Shown here: in pieces, positions 29,467 to 49,814 of the stretch
Position numbering within the stretch: the first letter of the stretch is position 1
How the letters are laid out: every line of letters begins with the position of its first letter
DNA from: an uncultured virus (IMG/VR IMGVR_UViG_3300025070_000011)
Lineage: Duplodnaviria > Heunggongvirae > Uroviricota > Caudoviricetes
IMG/VR virus record: IMGVR_UViG_3300025070_000011
DNA: 64,000 nucleotides
Reading direction: 5' to 3' (one strand)
The notes under the pieces: model-generated
Seen by the model: the letters and a program-made list of their open reading frames with translations, nothing else
What the model was told of the DNA's origin: nothing
Databases searched by the model: none
Program-made: the position numbers and the translations under genes

Positions 29467-29862
29467 GTGGCATATTCAGACAAGGTACTAGACCATTATG
29501 AAAATCCCCGAAATGTCGGCAAGCTTGACGAAAATGATGAAGATGTCGGAACTGGCATGGTTGGAGCTCCGGCGTGTGGAGACGTTATGCGGTTGCAAAT
29601 CCGAGTATCGGATGACGGAATTATTGAAGACGCTAAATTCAAAACTTACGGATGCGGCAGTGCAATTGCTTCTTCATCATTACTCACAGAATGGGTTAGA
29701 GGAAAGTCCCTTGACGAAGCAAGAGAAATCCGCAATACAGAAATTGCTCAAGAACTATCACTCCCGCCTGTAAAGATTCATTGCAGCGTACTTGCCGAAG
29801 ACGCGATCAAGGCCGCTGTACAAAACTACAGAGAGAAACATGGAACCGATACAAGTAACTGA
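29467..29862 (+). CDS. iscU: Fe-S cluster scaffold IscU
   Basis: YSDKVLDHYENPRNVG, GAPACGDVM, KTYGCGSAIASSS, LPPVKIHCS. Confidence 0.97.
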   Translation: MAYSDKVLDHYENPRNVGKLDENDEDVGTGMVGAPACGDVMRLQIRVSDDGIIEDAKFKTYGCGSAIASSSLLTEWVRGKSLDEAREIRNTEIAQELSLPPVKIHCSVLAEDAIKAAVQNYREKHGTDTSN

Positions 29863-30166
29863 AAAGGCTGCTGATTGGATTTCTAAACAATTGAGTGAGA
29901 GAGGAAAAGGATTGGGTGTCAGACTTGGAGTCAAACCCAGTGGTTGTTCCGGTTACAAATACATAATAGAATACGCCGATCATCAAAACATAGACGATAC
30001 AGTTACTAGTGTATCTGGTGTAAATGTCTATGTTGATTCTAAGAGCGCGATCTATCTTTCTGGGTCCAGAGTTGATTTTAAGATAGATGGAATTAACAGC
30101 GGAATAGAGATATCCAATCCAAAAGCAATCGCTCACTGTGGATGCGGGGAGAGTTTCGCCGTCTAA
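29840..30166 (+). CDS. iscA: A-type Fe-S carrier IscA
   Basis: GVRLGVKPSGCSG.KY and NP.....CGCGESF motifs. Confidence 0.93.
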   Translation: MEPIQVTEKAADWISKQLSERGKGLGVRLGVKPSGCSGYKYIIEYADHQNIDDTVTSVSGVNVYVDSKSAIYLSGSRVDFKIDGINSGIEISNPKAIAHCGCGESFAV

Positions 30167-30294
30167 TGTATCTATGCATATGTAATGCCGTTAAAGAGGG
30201 AGACACAACTAGGTATCATTTAATTGGTACTAATTGTGGCAAGTGTGTAGAAAATAAAAACTCCAAATGCAAGGAGAATAAACGTGTCAGATGA
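30166..30294 (+). CDS. minimal Bfd-like [2Fe-2S] ferredoxin, not in ORF track
   Basis: Manual translation MYLCICNAVKEGDTTRYHLIGTNCGKCVENKNSKCKENKRVR; MY.C.CN...G..CGKC pattern of Bfd; TAATG-coupled to iscA. Confidence 0.65.
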   Translation: MYLCICNAVKEGDTTRYHLIGTNCGKCVENKNSKCKENKRVR

Positions 30295-30652
30295 TTTCGA
30301 TTTTGGTTTTACTGCGGTAGATGATATACCGACAGCCCCGATTGCTAATACAACACCAGTAACGGCAGAACTCTCGCCGGACTCACTAGATGCGGTCATG
30401 GACAAACTAGAACAGTTAGAGTCCCGAATACTGTCTGCTGATAACAGTGGTATGATAAATGAACATCGAGCTCTTCTGGAATCGGATGTTGCCAGTAAAC
30501 TAAAGGATGTGGAGATGTTGATTTTGCCCTTGTTGCAGAATCTAAAGAAGAATCCCGAAAAGGATTACATACATTGGCCCAATAGAACCGCGATTATTGA
30601 CAAACAAATTGAAAGAATCACCGCTGTAACTCGCTATTTTGAGCGGATTTGA
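30284..30652 (+). CDS. hypothetical phage protein
   Basis: DFDFGFTAVD and LPLL.NL.KNPEK.YI.WPNR pattern; AGGAG SD. Confidence 0.75.
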   Translation: MSDDFDFGFTAVDDIPTAPIANTTPVTAELSPDSLDAVMDKLEQLESRILSADNSGMINEHRALLESDVASKLKDVEMLILPLLQNLKKNPEKDYIHWPNRTAIIDKQIERITAVTRYFERI

Positions 30653-30676
30653 CCGAAAAAAATTCAAAAAAAATCG

Positions 30677-30747
30677 TAAGCCATTGATTTATAAGGGAAT
30701 CTTTTTTCGGCTGGCCCCTTGACTTCTGCTTCAATAGCTGTCATAAT
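30677..30747 (+). promoter_or_regulatory. putative early promoter with upstream IHF-like 20-bp box
   Basis: TAAGCCATTGATTTATAAGG box, then TTGACT-N17-CATAAT (30719-30747). Confidence 0.75.
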
Positions 30748-30773
30748 GGGTGTTCATTGAGAGTGAGAGTTCT

Positions 30774-33074
30774 ATGAATATTGAGTCAAAGTCCTACCTC
30801 GCCAAACTTCTGGCTACTGAAGACATTGCAATCGAACATGCTAATGTTCCTACCGCCGCGTTTGATCTAAAGGCGCGCAAAATTATCCTGCCAAACTGGA
30901 AGGATATGCCCGACTTTCTTTATGATCTTCTGATCGGCCACGAAGTTGGTCACGGTTTGGTGACCCCGCCAGAAGGTTGGCACGATGCAGTGTGTTCTAA
31001 GGGTGCGGGTTTCAAATCCTTTCTTAATGTTATCGAAGACGCTCGTAACGAACGACTAGTCAAGCAACGATATCCAGGCCTTGTCAAATCATTCTACAAG
31101 GCTTACCGATACCTGTTTGAAAAAGATTTCTTTGGTGTTGGCGATACCGATGTCAACACTCTGTCATTTATTGACCGCATCAATCTTCACTACAAAATTG
31201 GTTCATTCCTCAATGTTCAGTTTTCTGATACCGAACGCGAAACACTCGCTCGTATCGATGTCGCTGAAGAGTGGGATGATGTAGTTGATATCGCCACCGA
31301 CATTTACGATGGCGCCCTTGAAGAAATGGAAGATCAACAACCAGAAAATCAGTCCGCTCCTGCCAATGGCGAAGATGATAGTGAAGAGACTGAAGGACAA
31401 GGTTCTTCAACCGAGTTGTCCGATGATGCTGAAGACACCGATGACCCCACCGAAGGCGAAGGTCAGTCGGGTGAGACTGATGGCGAAGAGTCTGATGATG
31501 AGTCTGCGCCATCCGGTGCCGCCGATGCTGAACAATCTGATGAAGAGTCTGATGACAGTGAGAGTGGCGAGGCCTCTGCCGAGAGTGGCACCCCCACTCA
31601 ATCCAGCGAAGAATCTATCACTGAACCTATGTCCGAGACCGATCAAAGTTTCCGACAGAATGAAGGTCGCCTTCTAGATGACGGTTCTGAGTCAGTGTTC
31701 ACTGCTTACGTTCCCAAGTTTATCAGTCGCGCTCACAATGTGTTGCCTTCCTCAGAGACTTGGAATTTTGAGTGGAAGTTGTCTCAAAATTATTATGAAC
31801 CAGTTGACTCTAGTAATATCAAAACATATCAAAAAGTTCTGGTAGATACCTTCCGCAGTAAAAACAAATCTGCCATCAATCAATTAGTGATGCAGTTTGA
31901 GATGAAACGCAAGGCGTCAGAGTTACGCAAGGCTCAGGTCAACAACACTGGTAAACTCAACGAAGATAAGTTGTGGGCCTACAAGTTGACCGAAGATTTG
32001 TTTTTGTCAAACACTATCATGCCGTCTGGTCAAAATCATGGCATGTTTATGATTATTGATTTCTCTGGTTCAATGGCACAACATATGGCGGGTACGCTTG
32101 AACAGTTGTTAATTCAAGTTGCCTTCTGCAAACAGGTTGGTATTCCGTTTGATGTTTACGGTTTCAGTTCGCAAATGCCTAACAAAGATGGTATTAGACA
32201 ATCCGACAATGAGAACGAAGTTTCTTTGTGCAGTGGTTCCGGTCTTGTTCAGTTGATTACTTCAGAGTCTTCACCTGCTCAGTACAAAAAAGAATTTGAA
32301 AACTTGTTGATGTTCGCTGACTGTTGGTCTGCCTACACTGCTCGACGTTGGAGAGGCGCCGAGTCCAAATACTACATTTCTCCATATGATATGCCAAGGC
32401 ATATGCAGTTGGGTTCTACTCCGCTTGCTAGTGCAATGATGATTGCAATCGATGTGGCAAAAGAATTCAAAGACCGCAACCGCATTGAAGTAATGAACAC
32501 CATTGTTCTTTCCGATGGTGGTAACACCGACGAGTATGAAATTTTTGCCGATGCGAATGATGATTCATATTGGTCTGAACACAAAAGTGTTAATGCCACC
32601 AAACTGATTCTAAAACGTGGCACTACTTCTGTCATGGTTCGACATCCCAAGTCAGTCTATCGCAATCAGTATCGTTTGGGCCGAGAGATTAGTCTTCTCG
32701 CTGGTATTGCTATGTTTAGAAAGATCACTGGTTCGCGCATGGTAAACTTCTGGATTTGTTCAAAGAAAAAATCTGAAGTCAAGAATGCTTGGAATTGGGT
32801 GACCTTAAGCGAATACACTTGGGCAGAACCACAAGAGTTCTCTGCCCCATACAAGTCTCATTGGATGAAGAAAGATTACATGGCAGTTGACAGTGCATGG
32901 GGTTACGATCAGACTTTCCTAATCAAAGGCGGTGCTGACCTTGAAATTGATGACGCCCAATTGGATATCAAGTCTGACAAAAAGTCCGATGTACTGCGCG
33001 GATTCCGCCAGTTTCAGTCTAAAAAGTCGAATTCCCGACATTTCATTAACCGATTCGTTGACATGGTTGCCTAA
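30774..33074 (+). CDS. CobT-like metallopeptidase + VWA domain protein
   Basis: HEVGH HExxH, N..ED.R, acidic linker, DFSGSM MIDAS, STPL, LSDG; partner of the downstream AAA ATPase. Confidence 0.85.
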   Translation: MNIESKSYLAKLLATEDIAIEHANVPTAAFDLKARKIILPNWKDMPDFLYDLLIGHEVGHGLVTPPEGWHDAVCSKGAGFKSFLNVIEDARNERLVKQRYPGLVKSFYKAYRYLFEKDFFGVGDTDVNTLSFIDRINLHYKIGSFLNVQFSDTERETLARIDVAEEWDDVVDIATDIYDGALEEMEDQQPENQSAPANGEDDSEETEGQGSSTELSDDAEDTDDPTEGEGQSGETDGEESDDESAPSGAADAEQSDEESDDSESGEASAESGTPTQSSEESITEPMSETDQSFRQNEGRLLDDGSESVFTAYVPKFISRAHNVLPSSETWNFEWKLSQNYYEPVDSSNIKTYQKVLVDTFRSKNKSAINQLVMQFEMKRKASELRKAQVNNTGKLNEDKLWAYKLTEDLFLSNTIMPSGQNHGMFMIIDFSGSMAQHMAGTLEQLLIQVAFCKQVGIPFDVYGFSSQMPNKDGIRQSDNENEVSLCSGSGLVQLITSESSPAQYKKEFENLLMFADCWSAYTARRWRGAESKYYISPYDMPRHMQLGSTPLASAMMIAIDVAKEFKDRNRIEVMNTIVLSDGGNTDEYEIFADANDDSYWSEHKSVNATKLILKRGTTSVMVRHPKSVYRNQYRLGREISLLAGIAMFRKITGSRMVNFWICSKKKSEVKNAWNWVTLSEYTWAEPQEFSAPYKSHWMKKDYMAVDSAWGYDQTFLIKGGADLEIDDAQLDIKSDKKSDVLRGFRQFQSKKSNSRHFINRFVDMVA

Positions 33075-33152
33075 GTGATTGATTTTAAAGGGAAAGAAAA
33101 TCAAATTATTTCGCTTTGGCCCCTTGACTTTTGCTTCGGTATGTAGTAAGCT
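33072..33152 (+). promoter_or_regulatory. putative early promoter with upstream IHF-like box
   Basis: TAAGTGATTGATTTTAAAGG box, then TTGACT-N17-TAAGCT (33124-33152). Confidence 0.65.
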
Positions 33153-33192
33153 AGTATAGTAAAGTGAGAAATTCAGAGAGAGTGAGTATATT

Positions 33193-34377
33193 ATGAGTAT
33201 TAAACAGAAAGATCAGTTGTTGTCCGCCCTTGCCGATTCTAATAATCAGTCGGGTATCTTCTCAAAATCAGAGGTTATGGATATTGCCCGTGAGGCGGGT
33301 CTCAAAAATCCGATGTGGTTTTTCAAAGAGGCCAAGGTTGGTCGCAATCAATTCAACCCCATGATGGTCGGACAAGTTGTGACTATGCCGACACCCGCTG
33401 AACCAATTGCAGTAATTCAATCGCAACCAGAACCAGTTGCAGTTGCCGCTGCAAAGGTTCTCAGTCAGGCTAAACTTGTTGTGGAAATCGAAAACTTAGT
33501 TCCCGCCAAAGATTCAACATATGTTCCTTTCGGTTTCTATCGTGACCTAGTGAACATTGTCAAGTCTGGCATGTTCTACCCTACATTCATTTGCGGTTTG
33601 TCCGGTAACGGTAAAACCATGATGGTCGAACAGGTTTGCGCCAAACTCAAACGTGAAGCAATCCGTGTCAATATCTCAATCGAAACCGATGAAGATGATC
33701 TGATTGGTGGTAACACGCTTGTCGATGGTAACGTAGTCTATCGTGAAGGTCCGGTACTGACCGCCATGAAACGTGGCGCAGTGTTGATCCTTGATGAGAT
33801 TGACCGTGGATCAAACAAGTTGATGTGTCTACAGGCAATCCTTGAAGGCAAACCCTACTTCAACAAAAAGACTGGCGAAGTTATTACTCCCGCCTCTGGT
33901 TTCAATGTGATCGCTACTGCGAACACCAAGGGCCGTGGTTCCGATGACGGTAAGTTCATGGGTGCCCAAGTTCTTGATGAGGCATTCCTCGAGCGATTTG
34001 CAATCACAGTCGAACAAGAATACCCTTCTGCCGCTCAAGAGAAAAAGATTGTTCTCAACAAAATGGCAGTTGCCGATTGCGTTGATGATGAGTTTGCCGA
34101 CAAGTTGGTACTCTGGGCTGATGTGATCCGAAAGACTTTCTATGAAGGTGGCATCGATGAGTTGGTTTCGACTCGCCGTCTGGAACACATTGTCAAGGCG
34201 TTCGCCATGTTCAAAGACCGACTCAAGGCGATTCAGTTGTGCGTCAATCGATTCGACACTGACACCAAGTCTGCCTTCATTGACCTGTACACCAAGGTTG
34301 ATGCTGGTGTCGATCTCACTGAGACCTCAGAAGAAGATATCGCCGATGAAAAAGAGGCAGATGAATATGACATCTAA
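33193..34377 (+). CDS. cobS: CobS-like MoxR AAA+ ATPase
   Basis: GLSGNGKT, ETDEDDLIGG, LILDEID, ATANTKG.G, AFLERF, STRRL motifs. Confidence 0.88.
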   Translation: MSIKQKDQLLSALADSNNQSGIFSKSEVMDIAREAGLKNPMWFFKEAKVGRNQFNPMMVGQVVTMPTPAEPIAVIQSQPEPVAVAAAKVLSQAKLVVEIENLVPAKDSTYVPFGFYRDLVNIVKSGMFYPTFICGLSGNGKTMMVEQVCAKLKREAIRVNISIETDEDDLIGGNTLVDGNVVYREGPVLTAMKRGAVLILDEIDRGSNKLMCLQAILEGKPYFNKKTGEVITPASGFNVIATANTKGRGSDDGKFMGAQVLDEAFLERFAITVEQEYPSAAQEKKIVLNKMAVADCVDDEFADKLVLWADVIRKTFYEGGIDELVSTRRLEHIVKAFAMFKDRLKAIQLCVNRFDTDTKSAFIDLYTKVDAGVDLTETSEEDIADEKEADEYDI

Positions 34378-34645
34378 TATCGATTATCGATACAACGAGT
34401 TTGCGTTGATTAGTGAGTTGGAAGATTATGTTAATTCTACATATACCGAACACTACTCCAAGAACAAGTTTCAGGCCACTGAGTTTATCATTGACGGTGG
34501 CCACGGTGAAGGTTTCTGCCTCGGTAATATCCTAAAGTACACTCAACGATATGGTAATAAGGAAGGCAAGAACCGTAAAGACCTCTTGAAAGTACTTCAT
34601 TATGCCCTAATTGCACTGCATGTTCACGATTTAGAACATCAGTAA
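34367..34645 (+). CDS. DUF3310-like protein
   Basis: HYS...Q....I....GEGFCLGNILKY..RYG.K.G...DLLK.LHY motif. Confidence 0.8.
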   Translation: MTSNIDYRYNEFALISELEDYVNSTYTEHYSKNKFQATEFIIDGGHGEGFCLGNILKYTQRYGNKEGKNRKDLLKVLHYALIALHVHDLEHQ

Positions 34646-34664
34646 AGGTTCGCCCTTGCGGCGG

Positions 34665-34722
34665 CCGAGAACCGACAGGCCTCTCTCACTCTCTCTCAAC
34701 TTGTCGGTTCTCGGTTTTTTTT
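34665..34722 (+). terminator. intrinsic terminator with a 20-nt CU-rich loop (candidate antisense RNA)
   Basis: 15-bp stem 34665-34679/34700-34714, loop CCTCTCTCACTCTCTCTCAA, followed by T8. Confidence 0.8.
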
Positions 34723-34724
34723 AT

Positions 34725-34732
34725 TATAAATA
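34725..34732 (+). promoter_or_regulatory. late promoter TATAAATA
   Basis: Exact motif right after the terminator. Confidence 0.7.
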
Positions 34733-34768
34733 GAGAGAGAAATATCAACCCCCGTAATGGAGAGAATA

Positions 34769-35104
34769 ATGGCTTATAGAAAAGTTACAACGTTTACAAG
34801 AACCGATGCAGAATCAGAGTGGCCTTTTTGGGCAACGGAATTGCTGGGTACTGACTACGACGCTCAATCCACTGCTTGGCTGGATTGGATGACCGGAAGA
34901 ACGGATGTCTCAATGACAAATGACTTCAGTGATCCTTTGAGTGTTGTGATTAAATTAAACTTTGCGGATGAAGCAGCATACATTGCTTGGAACACTGCAA
35001 GAAGTGATGCTGGACATCCAGATGATTACTTGGGTAACTCGGAAGTGACCAGTTATTGTACTACAAATAGTATTACAATCGCTCACACTACGGAGTCAGA
35101 TTAA
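34769..35104 (+). CDS. hypothetical protein (late)
   Basis: ORF with GGAG SD behind a late promoter. Confidence 0.7.
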   Translation: MAYRKVTTFTRTDAESEWPFWATELLGTDYDAQSTAWLDWMTGRTDVSMTNDFSDPLSVVIKLNFADEAAYIAWNTARSDAGHPDDYLGNSEVTSYCTTNSITIAHTTESD

Positions 35105-35107
35105 CCC

Positions 35108-35136
35108 TTGACATTTGAGTGTCGTTTTGTTATTAT
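35108..35136 (+). promoter_or_regulatory. sigma70-type promoter for the gp45 operon
   Basis: TTGACA-N17-TATTAT. Confidence 0.75.
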
Positions 35137-35161
35137 GTAGTTTGTTTGATTGGAGTTTATT

Positions 35162-35818
35162 ATGATGAAAGTTTCTAAGTCCACCCTTGATACATTCAAG
35201 AACTTTGCCTCTATCAACACGAATCTTCTGATTCGTGAGGGGCAAACTCTTGCTACTGTGTCAAATTCTATGAACATTCTGTGCCGTGCAACGGTTACGG
35301 AAAGTTTTCCCAAAGAGTTTGCTATCTACGATCTCAATCAGTTTTTGTCTTTGTTGACAATGGATGAGAATGCTGACCTTGAGTTTGGTGATGAGTCAGT
35401 CACCGTACAAACCAATGCCGGTAAGTTTGAATTCTATTACGCTGAACCGTCTGTGATTAAAGCTGCACCAGACAAAGAGATTCAAGTAGAAACGCTGTAC
35501 GAATTCCCGATTGCCAAAGAAAACATTCAGACAATCTATCGTGCCGCGTCTGCTATCTCTGCTCCCTTCCTGCGAGTAATTGGTGATGGTAGTCAGGTAT
35601 CACTCTCTGTTGGTGATCCCAATACTCCCAAGAGTAATTCTTTCACTACCATTCTTGGTGATAGTAGTTTGGAATTTGATGCACGACTCTCAATTGAGTC
35701 GCTCAAGATTATCCCAGACTCTTACGTTGTCACAGTCGGTACTGCGCCAGTAATTATGTTTACCAATGATGAAAGAACATACTGGTTGGCATTGGACCCA
35801 AGTTCAAAAACACAGTAA
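35162..35818 (+). CDS. gp45: sliding clamp gp45
   Basis: MK.SK.TL..FKNFASIN..L and F.IYDLNQFL motifs. Confidence 0.93.
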   Translation: MMKVSKSTLDTFKNFASINTNLLIREGQTLATVSNSMNILCRATVTESFPKEFAIYDLNQFLSLLTMDENADLEFGDESVTVQTNAGKFEFYYAEPSVIKAAPDKEIQVETLYEFPIAKENIQTIYRAASAISAPFLRVIGDGSQVSLSVGDPNTPKSNSFTTILGDSSLEFDARLSIESLKIIPDSYVVTVGTAPVIMFTNDERTYWLALDPSSKTQ

Positions 35819-35828
35819 GAGGTCTCAA

Positions 35829-36443
35829 ATGTTAGAAGTAGGTCAGAGACTTCCACAGGAAGTCGTATTCAAAACTCGGACCCGTTGTCCAAACATGGAC
35901 TCTATGGGTCACCCAAATCCCTACAAGTGGGAGGATGTACTTTCTGCCGATTTGTTTAAGGACAAGAGAGTCATTCTATTTTCATTGCCTGGGGCTTATA
36001 CCCCGACATGTTCTGCGTATCAATTGCCAGGCTATGAAGAGAACTATACGTTTTTTCAGTCAAAGGGGATTGATGAAATCTATTGCGTCTCCGTCAATGA
36101 TACCTTTGTGATGAACGCATGGTTCCGATACCAAAACATTAAAGGTGTAAAACCGATCCCCGATGGTTCTGGTAAGTTTACTAAAGAACTGGGCATGTTG
36201 GTTGACAAAGATAACCTTGGTTTTGGTATGCGGTCTTGGAGATATGCCCTGCTGGTGAATGACGGCGTTATTGAAAAGTCGTTTGTTGAAGCTGGCATCT
36301 GCGACAACAATGAAGATGACCCATATGAAGTATCTGATCCCGCAACAATGGCATCATATATCATGGAAGAAAGTGAAGTTGGTGGGCATCAACTAGAACT
36401 TAATTTGGAAGAGTCTCTTGGGACTCAAGATAAAATTGGATAA
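35829..36443 (+). CDS. peroxiredoxin (Prx5 / redoxin type)
   Basis: FSLPGAYTPTCS, SVND.FVM.AW, DG.G.FT..LGM, GFG.RSWRY motifs. Confidence 0.92.
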   Translation: MLEVGQRLPQEVVFKTRTRCPNMDSMGHPNPYKWEDVLSADLFKDKRVILFSLPGAYTPTCSAYQLPGYEENYTFFQSKGIDEIYCVSVNDTFVMNAWFRYQNIKGVKPIPDGSGKFTKELGMLVDKDNLGFGMRSWRYALLVNDGVIEKSFVEAGICDNNEDDPYEVSDPATMASYIMEESEVGGHQLELNLEESLGTQDKIG

Positions 36444-36451
36444 GGAGTAGT

Positions 36452-36610
36452 ATGGCTACTGCATGGCGTAAAAATAATCAACGCGCTCGTCGAGTTGTGG
36501 CACTTGAAAACCTCAAGAGTGCCAAGTTTTTCCCCAAAGGTGATCGCACCGAACAGAAGTGGGAAGAGAATCGACAACAACAAATTGAGGTGCTTGAAAA
36601 AAGGATATAA
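36452..36610 (+). CDS. small basic hypothetical protein, not in ORF track
   Basis: MATAWRKNNQRARRVVALENLK...EKRI, 52 aa; AAGGAG SD; fills the gap up to gp44. Confidence 0.7.
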   Translation: MATAWRKNNQRARRVVALENLKSAKFFPKGDRTEQKWEENRQQQIEVLEKRI

Positions 36611-37542
36611 TGATGAATGAATTTCTCTGGGTGGAGAAGTACAGACCGCAGACTATCTCGGAGTGTGTATTACCGAGTAGACTGAAAGAAGTATTTCAAT
36701 CTTTTGTTGACCAGAAAGAAATTCCTAACATGTTGCTCTGTGGTACTGCCGGTACTGGTAAGACCACAGTTGCTCGTGCTCTTTGTAATGAATTAGAATG
36801 TGACTACATCATTATCAATGGATCAGATGAATCTGGCATTGATGTTCTCAGAACAAAGATTAGGGACTTTGCAAGTACGGTAAGTTTCGGTGGTAAGACC
36901 AAGGTGGTCATACTAGACGAGGCAGACTATTTAAACCCCAACTCAACGCAACCAGCTTTGCGTGCCTTTATCGAAGAGTTTTCTAAAAACTGTCGATTCA
37001 TTTTTACCTGTAACTTCAAGAATCGAATCATCGAACCACTTCACAGTCGGACAACGGTGGTTGAATTCAAACTCAAGAAAGATGAGAAACCTCAGATGGC
37101 ATCTGCCTTCATGAGTCGCATCTCAAATATCTTGGGTGAAGAAAACATCGAATACTCCGAAAAGGTTCTCGCCGAACTTTTGATGAAGTACTTTCCAGAC
37201 TATCGTAGGACACTAAACGAACTTCAAAGGTACTCTAGGTTTGGTGCAATCGATGAGGGTATCCTTAGTAACATTGCCGAAGTCAACATGAAGGGGTTGT
37301 GTGACAGTCTCAAAGACAAAGACTTCAAGAAGATGCGGCAGTGGGTTTCTAACAATGTGGATACGGACCCGCAAGGCCTGTACCGTAAAATTTATGACAC
37401 TCTTTTGGAAAGAGTTGTACAGGTGCCGCATCTCGTTCTATTGATTGCAGACTACCAGTACAAGTCTGCGTTTGTTGCCGACCAAGAAATCAATCTGACC
37501 GCATGTCTGGTTGATATTATGGCAAACGTGGATATGAAATGA
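36610..37542 (+). CDS. gp44: clamp loader large subunit gp44
   Basis: LWVEKYRP, GTAGTGKTT, ILDEAD, PLHSR motifs. Confidence 0.96.
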   Translation: MMNEFLWVEKYRPQTISECVLPSRLKEVFQSFVDQKEIPNMLLCGTAGTGKTTVARALCNELECDYIIINGSDESGIDVLRTKIRDFASTVSFGGKTKVVILDEADYLNPNSTQPALRAFIEEFSKNCRFIFTCNFKNRIIEPLHSRTTVVEFKLKKDEKPQMASAFMSRISNILGEENIEYSEKVLAELLMKYFPDYRRTLNELQRYSRFGAIDEGILSNIAEVNMKGLCDSLKDKDFKKMRQWVSNNVDTDPQGLYRKIYDTLLERVVQVPHLVLLIADYQYKSAFVADQEINLTACLVDIMANVDMK

Positions 37543-38330
37543 GGTTGATATCCGGCGATCTATCCACAATTGGCAAAGGTGCCGCTGAAGCAATTGCTGA
37601 AGAAGTTTTGCAATATGGTGTTGTTGTTATACGAGATCAAAACTTGACCCCAGATGAAGAGGTTAGGGTTTGCAAGATGATCGGCAATGTACAAGAGTAC
37701 ACCGATGCGGATAGAACAAAACATATTGCTTGTCATCCAAACATACTGCGGGTCACCGGACAGAAAGATCAACACGGCGAGCCAGGATTGTTTGGACATA
37801 CAAGTGCTCTTGACTGGCATGCCAATCAGGCAAGTAACTATGAACGAGACCCTTTGATCTGGTTGTACGGGAAGAAAAGTACCGAGGGAAGTTGTACCAG
37901 TTGGATCGATATGAGAAGGGCATATGAAGATTTGCCAAGAGATGAAAAGAATCGTCTACGGAAAATAAAGATCACTCTGGGATATAAGTCTGGTTCTTAT
38001 TCCGACAGTCAATTCTTCAAAGAACATCATGCCACTGACAGACCATTTGATCTGGTGTATACTAACGAGTATGGTATTACTGGTTTGTACTTTCCGTTCC
38101 TACAAATTTTTGGTATGGTGGGGATGGATAAAATACAGTTTGAAGAAACGATGTCAATGCTTAAGGAACATGTGTTACAAGATCAGTACAGGTATGACCA
38201 CTATTGGCAAGACGGTGATGTGGTCATCAGTGAACAGTGGTTGACCATCCACAAACGATGGGAGTGTGATTTTATGGAAGATAGAGTACTGCATCGAATC
38301 GCATTTGATTACAGTAAGACAAATATATGA
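37539..38330 (+). CDS. TauD/TfdA-like Fe(II)/2-oxoglutarate dioxygenase with variant H-x-N motif
   Basis: GVVVIRDQ.LT, DWHAN, T.W.DM..AY..LP, H.WQ.GD.VI.....T.H.R, RVLHR. Confidence 0.8.
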   Translation: MRLISGDLSTIGKGAAEAIAEEVLQYGVVVIRDQNLTPDEEVRVCKMIGNVQEYTDADRTKHIACHPNILRVTGQKDQHGEPGLFGHTSALDWHANQASNYERDPLIWLYGKKSTEGSCTSWIDMRRAYEDLPRDEKNRLRKIKITLGYKSGSYSDSQFFKEHHATDRPFDLVYTNEYGITGLYFPFLQIFGMVGMDKIQFEETMSMLKEHVLQDQYRYDHYWQDGDVVISEQWLTIHKRWECDFMEDRVLHRIAFDYSKTNI

Positions 38331-40483: not shown

Positions 40484-40486
40484 CCA

Positions 40487-40515
40487 TTGACATCTACGAC
40501 TTGTTGTGGTAACAT
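40487..40515 (+). promoter_or_regulatory. sigma70-type promoter for gp43
   Basis: TTGACA-N17-TAACAT with extended -10 TG. Confidence 0.7.
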
Positions 40516-40547
40516 ATAGTTTGTTTGATTATTTTGGTTATGAATAG

Positions 40548-43055
40548 ATGTCTCAAAACTTCTACACTTATGCATGGCAGTATGGCAACTCTATACTAGT
40601 GCGTGGGGTGAGGAATGGCAAACGGTTTACGGAACGCCATCCCTTCACCCCAACATTATACGTCAAGTCTGCTGAACAAAGTCAGTACAAATCTATCGAC
40701 GGTCAAAACCTAAAGGAAATAACCTTTGGTGACAATTCTGACTGTAAAGAATTCTTGGACAATTACTCCAAGGTCGAAAACTATCCCATCTATGGTCAGA
40801 CCGATCTGACCTATCAATATCTATCCTCCGTCTATCCCGACGAGCTGACATTTGATATGAGTCAAATGAAAATCTTGTCTATCGATATTGAGACTACCGC
40901 CGAACATGGGTTCCCAGATGTCGAGAACCCCATCGAAGAAGTTCTTCTTATCTCTGTCATTGACAATGCCACAAAAGAAATCCACACTTGGGGTGCGGGT
41001 GAGTGGAAGTGCGTTTCAGAGGAAGTCGAAGGACTGCCCGTGACCTATCACTATTGCAGTGATGAATATGATCTGCTGGAACAATTCATGCAGTGGTGGG
41101 CTAGTGACTATCCAGACATTGTTACTGGTTGGAACATGGAACAGTTTGATATGCCCTACTTGGTCAACAGGATTGACCGAGTGTTTGGCAACGATGCTAA
41201 AAACAATCTCAGTCCGTATGGCATGACTCGCAAACGCATGGTGCGAGGACACAACCGAGAGATCATGAAGATTGATATGAAGGGTGTGATTCAACTTGAC
41301 TACATGGACCTGTACAAAAAGTTTACCTACACATTCCAAGAATCTTATCGACTTGATTATATTGCCGAGGTAGAACTAGGAAAGAACAAACTTGAAATGG
41401 GGTTTGAAACTTTCCGAGAGTTTTACGAGGGTGATTGGAATAGATTCATCGACTACAACATCATCGATACCAAACTCGTTGACGAACTTGATGACAAGAT
41501 GAAGTTCCTTGAGTTGATTATCACGATGGCATATGACTGCAAGTGTAATTACAATGATATCTTTTCTTCAGTGCGTACATGGGATTGCCTGTTGTACAAT
41601 CACCTGTTGGATAAAGGTATCATGATTCCACAGAAGAAAGAACAATTCTCTGATGGATTCCCAGGCGGTTATGTACAAGAACCAAAGACGGGAAAGTACA
41701 AGTGGATCGTATCGGTTGATGCCACCTCACTGTACCCATCGATCATTATGCAACACAATCTCTCACCAGAGATGTTGGCAACGAATCACAAACCAATTGA
41801 TTGCACTGTCGATAGTATTCTTGATCGCAAACACAAACTCAAGTTGGATGATAGTGATCTATCTATGGCTGCCAATGGTTACCTGTACCACAAAGATAGA
41901 CAGGGTTTCATGGCAGAGATCACCCAGAAGTTTTTTGATGATCGTCAACGGTACAAGAAACTGATGAAACAGGCAGAACAAGAGTATGAGGATACAAAGA
42001 ATCCCGCACTCAAGAATGACATTGCCAAGTATCACAACTTCCAGATGGCACGAAAGATTCAGTTAAACTCTCTCTTTGGTGCAATTGGTAACAAGTGGTT
42101 CCGATACTTTGATGAACGCATCGCGGAGTCTATCACCCTGACCGGACAGTTGATTATCCGTGACACCGCCAAGGTCATCGATGAATTCATGAACAAGTTT
42201 CTCGACACAGAGGGTGAGGTATATTCTTTTTACACCGACACCGACTCTTGTTATCTCACGCTGGACAAGATGGTGGAGAAACATCTCAGTGGTAAATCCC
42301 GCGAAGAGATAATCAATGTACTTGATAAGTTTGTCGAGGATAAACTAGTACCATCAATCAATGGACGTATGTCTGAACTTGGTGACTACATGAACGTGTT
42401 CGACAAGAAGATCGATTTCAAACGCGAGGCAATTGCCGACACTGGCATCTGGGTTGCGAAGAAAAGATATGCAATGAATGTGTGGGATAACGAAGGTGTC
42501 CGATACAAAGAAGCAAAACTGAAAGTGATGGGTCTAGAGATTGTTCGATCCTCTACTCCAGCTCCTGTTCGTAGTTGGTTGAAGGAGGCAGTTGCGTTGT
42601 GTCTGGTTGCCGATGAAAAGGAGTTGCAGACTTATGTCGAAGAGACATGGCAGAGGTTTAGAAGTATGGACCCAGAACTGATTGCCTTTCCGCGTGGATG
42701 TAACAATCTCGGCAAGTACATGTCCCGCGAAACCGTATACACCAAGGGTACTCCCATGCATGTCCGTGGCGCATTGGTTTACAACCACCTGTGCAAGACA
42801 CAAAAAATCGAGAACAAGTATCAGTTGATTCAAGATGGTGATAAGATCAAGTATGTGTATCTGAAAGAACCAAATCATATCAGGGAGAACTGTGTTGCCA
42901 TGAACGGACTCATGCCAAAGGAGTTTGATCTGCATCGATACATTGACTATGATACTCAATTCCAGAAAGCATTTCTCGACCCACTAAATACAATTGTTGA
43001 AAGTTTGAACTGGAATACAAAACCAGTGGCTACGCTGGAAGGATTGTTTTCGTGA
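40548..43055 (+). CDS. gp43: family B DNA polymerase gp43
   Basis: DIET exonuclease I, GWN...FD, D..SLYPSII, KIQLNSLFG, YTDTDS, KKRYA motifs. Confidence 0.98.
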   Translation: MSQNFYTYAWQYGNSILVRGVRNGKRFTERHPFTPTLYVKSAEQSQYKSIDGQNLKEITFGDNSDCKEFLDNYSKVENYPIYGQTDLTYQYLSSVYPDELTFDMSQMKILSIDIETTAEHGFPDVENPIEEVLLISVIDNATKEIHTWGAGEWKCVSEEVEGLPVTYHYCSDEYDLLEQFMQWWASDYPDIVTGWNMEQFDMPYLVNRIDRVFGNDAKNNLSPYGMTRKRMVRGHNREIMKIDMKGVIQLDYMDLYKKFTYTFQESYRLDYIAEVELGKNKLEMGFETFREFYEGDWNRFIDYNIIDTKLVDELDDKMKFLELIITMAYDCKCNYNDIFSSVRTWDCLLYNHLLDKGIMIPQKKEQFSDGFPGGYVQEPKTGKYKWIVSVDATSLYPSIIMQHNLSPEMLATNHKPIDCTVDSILDRKHKLKLDDSDLSMAANGYLYHKDRQGFMAEITQKFFDDRQRYKKLMKQAEQEYEDTKNPALKNDIAKYHNFQMARKIQLNSLFGAIGNKWFRYFDERIAESITLTGQLIIRDTAKVIDEFMNKFLDTEGEVYSFYTDTDSCYLTLDKMVEKHLSGKSREEIINVLDKFVEDKLVPSINGRMSELGDYMNVFDKKIDFKREAIADTGIWVAKKRYAMNVWDNEGVRYKEAKLKVMGLEIVRSSTPAPVRSWLKEAVALCLVADEKELQTYVEETWQRFRSMDPELIAFPRGCNNLGKYMSRETVYTKGTPMHVRGALVYNHLCKTQKIENKYQLIQDGDKIKYVYLKEPNHIRENCVAMNGLMPKEFDLHRYIDYDTQFQKAFLDPLNTIVESLNWNTKPVATLEGLFS

Positions 43056-47936: not shown

Positions 47937-48039
47937 AATCAATGACTTACAAAAAAATCAAATTTTTTTTATTCTCCTTATAAATCAACAACTTACAGAC
48001 CCCACTAGACTTGACATCTGCCCCGATAGCTGTCATAAT
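47900..48039 (+). promoter_or_regulatory. putative early promoter with three IHF-like boxes
   Basis: Boxes at 47900-47919, 47930-47949 and 47976-47995; TTGACA-N17-CATAAT at 48011-48039 sharing ATAGCTGTCATAAT with the 30719 promoter. Confidence 0.8.
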
Positions 48040-48076
48040 AGGTGTGTAAATTGAGTTGAGAGAGGTTTTTTGGTTA

Positions 48077-48472
48077 ATGTTTCGATTGTTTCAGTTAGAC
48101 ATCCCCCGCGAAGAGTTCAACGCCGTCAATCGGTTGGGTTGGACCGAGGCGATGTCACAGTTTCCCCGCGTCGAGGCTCACATGGCATTGTCCACTGGTG
48201 GTTCCGATGCCTATGTGACCGAGTACGATCAGTACTTCAAACATGTTGCTGACATCGATGTGAATGACCCCGAAAAGGCATTCCTTGTTCACAACAATCC
48301 ACATGGTCGCACCGATCTTGAGTGGCTTGTTGTTCGATACGGACCCCAACATTCGATGTCAGTTGGTGACATTCTCGTTGGTGAGTATGGCGAAGTTCTC
48401 ATGGTAGACAATTCTGGTTTCACTCAGTTGATGTCTTCCTACGTTGGTGCTGATGTTGCGGAGGTTGCGTAA
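48077..48472 (+). CDS. putative early protein, YodL-like
   Basis: HSMSVGDILV...VD..GF motif. Confidence 0.65.
   Translation: MFRLFQLDIPREEFNAVNRLGWTEAMSQFPRVEAHMALSTGGSDAYVTEYDQYFKHVADIDVNDPEKAFLVHNNPHGRTDLEWLVVRYGPQHSMSVGDILVGEYGEVLMVDNSGFTQLMSSYVGADVAEVA

Positions 48473-49737: not shown

Positions 49738-49814
<77 letters not shown>

Follow-up and report, generated by a model that had tools for sequence, protein, structure and literature searches.

Loop of a candidate RNA element at the 3′ end of a marine T4-like phage operon matches the operon's own Shine-Dalgarno leaders

Post-transcriptional control through RNA pairing has hardly been described in lytic T4-like phages that infect abundant marine bacteria. 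A 64,000-nucleotide (nt) stretch of an uncultured virus, IMG/VR record IMGVR_UViG_3300025070_000011 (the window, by which we mean the whole of this stretch), raises the question of whether such control operates there: an operon containing a cobT-like open reading frame (ORF), a cobS-like gene and a DUF3310 gene ends in a long hairpin at 34665-34722, and the large loop of this hairpin is complementary to GA-rich tracts just ahead of start codons. The initial annotation had proposed that the hairpin yields a phage small RNA (sRNA) that switches off three early genes, with the caveat that the sequences are of low complexity. We asked whether loop and leaders are matched beyond what their composition would give, in the window and among related phages. 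The comparison supports a pairing of the loop with the two leaders of its own operon, those of the cobT-like and cobS genes; to the third leader it lends no support.

The hairpin and its complements in the window

The element begins 6 nt past the stop codon of the DUF3310 gene and ends in a terminator-like T8 tract (34715-34722), a position that is the same in relatives; like the operon and the leaders discussed here, it lies on the plus strand. Its main stem, P2 (34664-34715), comprises 15-16 bp according to RNAfold and to paired changes in relatives: the arms CCGAGAACCGACAGG (34665-34679) and CTTGTCGGTTCTCGG (34700-34714), which include one G-U pair, enclose a CU-rich loop of 20 nt, CCTCTCTCACTCTCTCTCAA (34680-34699). 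A small GC hairpin of 4-5 bp predicted by RNAfold, P1 (34651-34663), stands before P2 and is itself preceded by a conserved R-G-U-U-Y motif. The proposed pairing (seed) region is the single-stranded loop, CCUCUCUCACUCUCUCUCAA, whose CCUC resembles an anti-Shine-Dalgarno (anti-SD) sequence. The predicted folding energy of the hairpin is -33.4 kcal/mol (z = -6.03), with 0 of 200 shuffled sequences as stable, and stem, loop and T8 are as first annotated.

With its GC-rich stem and the U tract that follows immediately, the hairpin has the outward features of an intrinsic terminator. It departs from one in its loop, which by the definition used in our scan should be short and unconstrained (3-8 nt); here it is 20-26 nt long, is conserved in sequence while the stems vary, and covaries with distant leaders. 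By fold and comparison it is a conserved structured element and not an ordinary terminator.

Three leaders in the window are complementary to this loop. The match is perfect over 11 nt for GAGAGTGAGAG in the leader of the cobT-like gene (30759-30769; duplex -20.1 kcal/mol), over 12 nt for AGAGAGAGTGAG in the cobS leader (33175-33186; -21.1 kcal/mol) and over 9 nt, or 10 with one stem base, for TTGAGAGAG in the leader of ORF48077 (48056-48064). The first of these lies in a longer tract, TTGAGAGTGAGAG (30756-30769), that makes up the SD region and ends 4 nt before the ATG at 30774, and the cobS tract ends 6 nt before the ATG at 33193. Over the starts of 83 ORFs (a crude longest-ORF call, in which at least one minus-strand call is wrong) the duplex energies of the three leaders, -19.5 to -21.1 kcal/mol, stand apart from the next best, -14.8 kcal/mol. 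The other early leaders in the window, those of gp45, gp43, gp55 and gp41, have no match to the loop.

The tracts were found where the initial annotation had placed them, with matches of the lengths given, and so was a further GA tract, AGAGAGAGA, at 34732-34740. They are not the only complementary sites, as that annotation had implied: the sense strand of the window holds 9 distinct sites with a perfect complement of at least 9 nt, 6 of them in coding sequence, including a 12-mer at 29893-29904 inside an IscA-like ORF. Three of the 9 fall within the roughly 5% of the window that lies at -35 to +5 of a start codon (binomial P ~0.01 by our own arithmetic, two of the leaders being paralogous). 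When the leaders were shuffled with dinucleotide composition preserved, the observed match was reached in 1 of 5000 shuffles for the cobT-like leader (11 nt) and in 23 of 5000 for that of cobS.

Loop and leaders in related phages

Relatives were taken from IMG/VR contigs, as the best 80 of 597 DUF3310 matches and 80 of 439 cobS matches. Downstream of the DUF3310 homologues the same arrangement recurs: the stems differ, the loop is nearly identical, and the T4-type late promoter motif TATAAATA follows 6-10 nt after the hairpin, with the exception of L274, L237 and L302, which have the element without this motif directly behind it. Among cobS-centred loci with enough downstream sequence, 35 of 70 contain the element, and at least 5 more were missed by the detector. 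The U-rich tail is kept as well (in 17 of 18 distinct elements, 5-8 of the 9 nt that follow the stem are T, and in the remaining one 3 are). Directly 5′ of P1, the R-G-U-U-Y motif (34646-34652 in the window) is conserved in the 14 aligned relatives of alignment A1, its GTT being invariant or nearly so, and in the same alignment the loop columns are invariant while the stems vary.

A covariance model was built from the 14 distinct sequences of A1, and 15 sequences were realigned with it (alignment A3). In A3, standard pairs occupy 93.1% of pair cells, as against 71.4% in shuffles (0 of 500 reach the observed value) and 32-45% with slid partners, and 94% of P2 cells are paired; these figures have to be discounted to the extent that A3 was fitted to the model structure. 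Changes on both sides occur in 18 of 20 pairs (5 of 5 in P1, 13 of 15 in P2). RNAalifold on the plain MAFFT alignment A1 gave only 7 pairs, with the stems out of register, and was replaced by the realignment. We also considered a minus-strand antisense promoter reading the GA-rich strand and rejected it: the TATAAT seen in the window is an accident of the flanks and is not kept in relatives.

Searches against Rfam release 15 returned only a tRNA at the gathering threshold for the whole window, and only chance-level matches for 34500-34900 at E-values up to 10; in seven related or look-alike loci the best non-tRNA match was Pseudomon-1/ErsA, with 28.9 bits against a threshold of 50. By these searches the element appears to belong to no Rfam family.

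Conservation of this kind could have a simpler cause. The element might be a terminator or 3′ stabiliser whose loop binds a protein, such as S1, Hfq or a phage RNA-binding protein, the complementarity to leaders being a by-product of SD and anti-SD composition. The strong stem and U tract suit this explanation, loop conservation alone fits it equally well, and it would account for GA-rich leaders in relatives that lack the element and for the poor pairing in one loop class, F. What it does not predict is complementary change of loop and leader, including at bases other than G and A or C and U, and it is here that the relatives are informative.

The cobT-like tract TTGAGAGTGAGAG does not change between the window, L014, L026 and G2, the four lineages that were compared first, although the flanking leader does; it varies in some later loci of the same loop class (L254, L269 and L296). 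The cobS tract varies among relatives and yet fits each phage's own loop. In the class of L027 and G004, a loop beginning UUUCCUAACUAUAC is matched by that lineage's own leaders UAUAGUUAGGA (11 nt, cobT-like) and UAUAGUUAGGAAA (12-13 nt, cobS), and in that of L031 and L048, a loop containing CUAACUCCUCUCCUC is matched by GAGGAGUUAG (10 nt) and GAGAGGAGU (9 nt). The L247 loop contains UCUCCUCACAAGU and fits its own cobS leader ACUUGUGAGGAGA over 13 nt, while the L249 loop contains CUCCUCACUAU and fits its own cobT-like leader AUAGUGAGGAG over 11 nt. Loops beginning GACCUCUCUCUCAA (L068 and G006) and CUCUCUCUUA (L015) match their own cobS leaders UUGAGAGAGGUC (10-12 nt) and UAAGAGAGAG (10 nt), respectively. 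Further matched pairs, missed by the first detector, are present in L237, L274 and L302. Co-changed pairs include non-repetitive stretches with bases outside the GA/CU alphabet, as in UAUAGUUAGGAA versus UUCCUAACUAUA and ACUUGUGAGGAGA versus UCUCCUCACAAGU.

Taken over all classes, perfect complements of 9-13 nt to the own cobS and/or cobT-like SD regions are found in classes A-E and G-K, and class F is weak. The complement always covers the SD sequence and ends 2-11 nt before the start codon in the relatives compared; every loop class keeps an anti-SD-like CCUC/CUCC core, and the bases flanking it are lineage-specific. In the 28.9-kilobase (kb) G004 contig, the 11-mer shared by leader and loop has just three occurrences, one in each of the two leaders and one, as its complement, in the loop; reversed-pattern controls occur 0 times and once. 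For the 10 own pairs of at least 9 nt, dinucleotide shuffling of the leaders gives a match as long as the observed one in 0-58 of 5000 cases. We then permuted the assignment of 8 loops, one representative per class, to 8 lineages: the cognate sum of longest matches, 86, is the maximum and is reached by 3 of 40,320 assignments, a proportion that is not a strict probability since the lineages are related. In 4 of the 8 lineages no other loop fits as well as the own one, and in 1 the own loop is tied for best.

The protein-site explanation leaves this permutation result unexplained, and we consider it quite unlikely. Because shuffled leaders rarely match and because several lineages pair through bases other than GA and CU, the objection from low complexity is removed for the operon's own two leaders. 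For these leaders, then, both the covariation of loop and leader and the enrichment at ribosome-binding sites, the latter against shuffled-leader controls, speak for the pairing, whether in cis or by a 3′-end RNA, that the initial annotation had put forward. Its extension to a third leader fared differently. A homologue of ORF48077 was detected by tblastn in 1 of 5 fetched relative contigs, where the leader match is 7 nt, so that covariation gives no support to a target at 48056; ORF48077 is kept as a possible partner at most, and the broader claim of an early-gene switch on three genes is not borne out.

Several observations weigh against pairing even with the two operon leaders. In 3 of the 8 lineages another lineage's loop fits as well as or better than the own one; for classes I and K it is a related class's loop that fits slightly better. 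Class F (the G2 type, on a 137-kb contig) matches its own leaders over only 7-8 nt, a length that shuffled leaders reach in 254-593 of 5000 cases, and its cobT-like leader is better suited to the loop of the window's class (12 nt). L247 and L231 each have one leader that matches and a second with only 5-6 nt. GA-rich leaders of this kind are also present in at least 9 relative loci that have no complementary hairpin within ±3.2 kb, and the leaders therefore do not depend on the element. The element is absent from the cultured phages Melnitz and HTVC008M, in which DUF3310 abuts gp45; phage C48C1 has a different context. When G-U pairs are allowed, 16 sites in the window have duplex energies of -17.5 kcal/mol or below, 3 of them the leaders, and G2 has 33 such sites; energy scans of this type are unspecific on a purine-rich coding strand, and perfect-match lengths were used instead.

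Seven marine metatranscriptome RNA runs contain 5-7% of the sequence words, and the four examined do so as contigs. One contig of 197 nt, from a close relative in run X2, spans 34648-34800, that is, the hairpin, the U tract, the late promoter and the beginning of the ORF behind them; its source may be either read-through RNA or DNA that was carried over, and it is uninformative on ends, strand and level, which likewise counts against the pairing proposal. The remaining contigs cover pieces of cobS. Full-text literature searches for the loop and leader strings returned nothing relevant, the sole paper with a phage link among those listed dealing with an unrelated terminus of a Staphylococcus phage, and in the matching passages of the Melnitz paper, promoters and terminators are mentioned only in general terms and the words "sRNA" and "hairpin" do not occur.

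A model of autoregulation and its alternatives

On balance we favour, as the probable explanation, that the loop at the operon's 3′ end pairs with that operon's SD leaders, either in cis or within a 3′-derived small RNA, and that translation from them is repressed. Hairpins P1 and P2 would together make up a conserved, structured RNA, about 70 nt long, at the 3′ end of early cobT-like/cobS/DUF3310 transcripts in a clade of uncultured marine T4-like phages. P2 would present the 20-26 nt loop, with its anti-SD-like core and lineage-specific flanking bases, to the 5′ leaders, themselves very short, of cobS and/or the cobT-like gene, where pairing at the SD region would block the ribosome-binding site. 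The operon would thereby limit its own translation, a negative autoregulation. If the contact is made in cis, 5′ and 3′ regions of one mRNA would pair, and each mRNA would be silenced once its own 3′ end had been made. If it is made in trans, a small RNA would arise from the 3′ end after termination at the U tract, perhaps with cleavage at R-G|U-U-Y before P1. Taken alone, the comparative data speak for a specific RNA-RNA contact over a long range; that it is the RNA strand which is active, that transcription ends at the U tract, whether the contact is in cis or in trans, and any role in timing are our extrapolations from the arrangement, and repression of the operon's proteins would follow from the overlap with the SD regions. 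Since a late promoter lies directly 3′ of the hairpin, transcripts made late would not include the element, and it would be confined to the early phase. This confinement draws on what is established for T4.

The late promoter and the spacing of the matches also suggest a reading in which RNA plays no part: leader and loop could be inverted repeats that flank a cassette and serve recombination or mobility, or the hairpin could be a DNA structure that serves the late promoter. The repeats, 1.5-3.9 kb apart, do bracket the cobT-like/cobS/DUF3310 module, the hairpin stands 6-10 nt before TATAAATA in relatives with the three exceptions named above, and the end repeats of mobile elements also co-evolve. 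The module, however, occupies one conserved position, and no recombinase-like family is among the PHROG matches of the window. Each of the two leaders pairs with the loop in a register of its own, the repeats fall precisely on SD regions and on a single-stranded loop, L274, L237 and L302 have the hairpin without TATAAATA directly behind it, and stand-alone versions of the hairpin have their own promoter and terminator. We regard a DNA-level role as very improbable.

The stand-alone versions bear on a different alternative, in which the released hairpin is a global trans-acting anti-SD small RNA that represses many GA-rich ribosome-binding sites, those of phage early genes and possibly of the host. 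The CCUC/CUCC core of every loop class can pair over 6-7 nt with ordinary SD sequences such as AGGAGA, and the third early leader in the window matches over 9-10 nt. The same CU-rich sequence occurs, on unrelated stems, in hairpin loops of stand-alone units (L160/L161/L097, L176 and L179), and 3 of 5 such contigs (G9, G10 and G12) have 9-11 nt matches at SD regions, in G10 and G12 just behind a TTGACA promoter, although matches to stand-alone CU-loop RNAs are of low complexity. Against a global role, it is the lineage-specific, non-repetitive parts of the loop that match the cobS and cobT-like leaders specifically, the G004 11-mer is found nowhere else in its 28.9 kb, the third leader shows no covariation, and the gp45, gp43, gp55 and gp41 leaders are without a match. 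A regulator of this breadth seems unlikely to us.

The stand-alone units are sRNA-like in layout. Those of L160, L161 and L097 (together with L103, L122, L124, L164, L199 and L201), L176 and L179 consist of a predicted TTGACx-17-TATxAT promoter, a hairpin and a second hairpin with a U run. Their loop carries CCUCUCUC(N)ACUCUCUC, and their best Rfam match, Pseudomon-1/ErsA, is sub-threshold. The L179 unit lies directly upstream of a gp45-like ORF. In the G009 contig (L311+L312, reverse-complemented), a 16-nt perfect complement of the stand-alone CU-loop, GAGTGAGAGAGAGTTG, is located at about 24803, 10 kb away, and a match of 11 nt, at about 29487, precedes an ATG by 5 nt.

A more general proposal, which we put forward only tentatively, is that marine T4-like phages possess a portable "loop-seed" RNA module, in which a long stem presents an anti-SD core and a few specificity bases. 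It might be attached to an operon's 3′ end, as an mRNA timer that targets itself, or be carried by stand-alone promoter-hairpin-terminator genes, and its specificity might be re-tuned by co-mutation of loop and leader, giving naturally orthogonal pairs of regulator and target in different lineages.

Genomic setting and relation to known systems

In the window, the cobT-like gene has a predicted sigma-70-type early promoter that is kept in relatives (30719-30747; TTGACT, 17-nt spacer, CATAAT). It encodes a protein of 766 amino acids (30774-33074) that matches PHROG 459, labelled "peptidase", and no Pfam family, so that the name cobT given to it initially is unconfirmed. The early promoter region of cobS (33124-33161) has TTGACT at 33124 and an ambiguous -10 element, TAAGCT or TATAGT. 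The cobS product (33193-34377) is an AAA+ ATPase by its matches to Pfam AAA_5 and CbbQ_C and to PHROG 249, and the DUF3310 gene (34361-34645; PF11753) is the last of the operon. Judging from promoter spacing, the leaders of the operon would be short, with about 20 nt separating the ATG from the predicted start of transcription. ORF48077 is preceded, at 48011-48079 up to its start, by a TTGACA-17-CATAAT early promoter and the leader TTGAGAGAGG (48056-48065). A box of about 20 bp, said to be common to all three promoters, is indeed shared by those of the cobT-like gene and ORF48077 as a spacer/-10 sequence, ATAGCTGTCATAAT.GGTGT, but the cobS promoter shares only its -35 part. The cobT-like and cobS promoters have in common an upstream stretch, ..TTTCG(G)CT(G/T)GGCCCCTTGACTT (30680-30720 and 33085-33125), that is kept in relatives. 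Promoter/leader modules appear to have been duplicated within the genome, and the GA tract of ORF48077 may come with the module that it has in common with the cobT-like gene.

Behind the hairpin, the late promoter motif TATAAATA (34725-34732) runs into the GA tract AGAGAGAGA (34732-34740), of which 8 nt are complementary to the loop. Relatives of classes A-F have a corresponding tract complementary to the phage's own loop over 6-11 nt, and those of classes H-K do not; a variant of it, GAGAGUAAGA, suits the UUAC variant of the loop. The other late promoters of the window are without such a tract, which could possibly form a pseudoknot or act as a decoy in read-through RNA. A small ORF of unassigned function follows upstream of gp45 on the plus strand (34769-35104; start MAYR..., SD GGAGAGA). 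The early-promoter leaders of gp45 and gp43 (35105-35164 and 40484-40550) have a common motif, TAGTTTGTTTGATT, that differs from the GA tracts and also precedes gp45 in relatives; it may represent a further element of control at the level of the leader, such as a RegA-type operator.

Of the 83 ORFs called in the window, 79 are on the plus strand. PHROG matches include the T4 core set of neck proteins, terminase, sheath, tube, portal, prohead protease and major capsid protein, as well as UvsY/W/X, gp55, gp46/47, gp45, gp44/62, RegA, gp43 and gp41; auxiliary genes encode a peptide deformylase, NifU- and IscA-like proteins, Hsp20, a peroxiredoxin and the cobS-like ATPase. Late genes have the TATAAATA motif and AGGAG-type SD sequences, and several early genes have TTGAC(A/T)-17-TATAAT-like promoters. 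The capsid protein is nearest to those of Methylophilales phage Melnitz (69.8%) and then Pelagibacter phage HTVC008M (67.7%). A near-identity search of phage records with 30000-38000 found no match, and the nearest record, G001, does not contain the region of the hairpin. From the core gene set, the capsid matches and the lack of a near-identical record, we therefore assign the window, as a genome fragment, to an uncultured marine T4-like myovirus. At 29840-30166, where the crude caller took a minus-strand ORF instead, lies an IscA/HesB-like ORF (Pfam Fe-S_biosyn), and a tRNA gene (RF00005, 67.3 bits) lies at 49738-49811 among small ORFs of the early region.

If the model holds, the element would represent a new RNA family, and the several distinct natural loop/leader pairs could be used as orthogonal translational regulators. 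The dosage of the cobT-like/cobS pair, auxiliary genes widespread in marine phages, would then appear to be tightly controlled by the phage. Phage RNAs with pairing loops have precedents: the stem-loop antisense RNAs c4 of P1 and CI of P4 pair through their loops with transcripts of the same region, at sites that include ribosome-binding sites. These RNAs function in temperate-phage immunity, arise by processing of leader regions and have no relation to the present element in sequence or context. T4-type phages also carry PeSL-type promoter/stem-loop cassettes, present in many near-identical copies per genome with conserved stems. The present element gives a single model match per contig (in the window, in the 137-kb contig and in a 53-kb relative contig), and its stems differ between phages.

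Nearer parallels are found in bacteria. CU-rich single-stranded regions of LhrC1-5 in Listeria, among them loop A and the terminator loop, pair with AG-rich SD regions (PMC5880928), and the seed of our element is likewise CU-rich and lies in a hairpin/terminator loop. The LhrC RNAs are stand-alone, stress-induced and unrelated in sequence, with three redundant short sites and no autoregulation of a host operon. In the icaR mRNA of Staphylococcus aureus, a pyrimidine-rich anti-SD motif in the untranslated 3′ region (3′UTR) pairs with the SD and blocks initiation (Ruiz de los Mozos et al. 2013, PMC3868564); here too a 3′ anti-SD motif is, by sequence, complementary to the SD of the same mRNA. 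icaR is described there as monocistronic, with a long 3′UTR, a 7-nt UCCCCUG and RNase III cleavage, whereas here an operon of 1.6-4 kb has matches of 9-13 nt in a terminator-like loop.

A further close comparison is with OppZ and CarZ of Vibrio cholerae, autoregulatory 3′UTR-derived sRNAs (Hoyos et al. 2020, eLife, PMC7398697), to which no sequence relationship was found in the Rfam search. RNAs of this type exert negative feedback on their operon and are set free by RNase E as stable, usually Hfq-bound molecules. As with these RNAs, the 3′-end RNA of an operon shares the terminator and is complementary to an initiation region of its own operon, here by computation, and the R-G-U-U-Y that precedes P1 is similar to RN|WUU, the RNase E motif given in the OppZ/CarZ paper. 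Their pairing sequence is in a single-stranded stretch upstream of the terminator, whereas ours is inside the large loop of the terminal hairpin. If the contact proposed here is real, it would extend autoregulation of an operon by its own 3′ end, as in OppZ/CarZ and icaR, to phages and, unlike the case of OppZ and CarZ, to a lytic T4-like phage in which up to two operon leaders are matched and the match is re-tuned from lineage to lineage.

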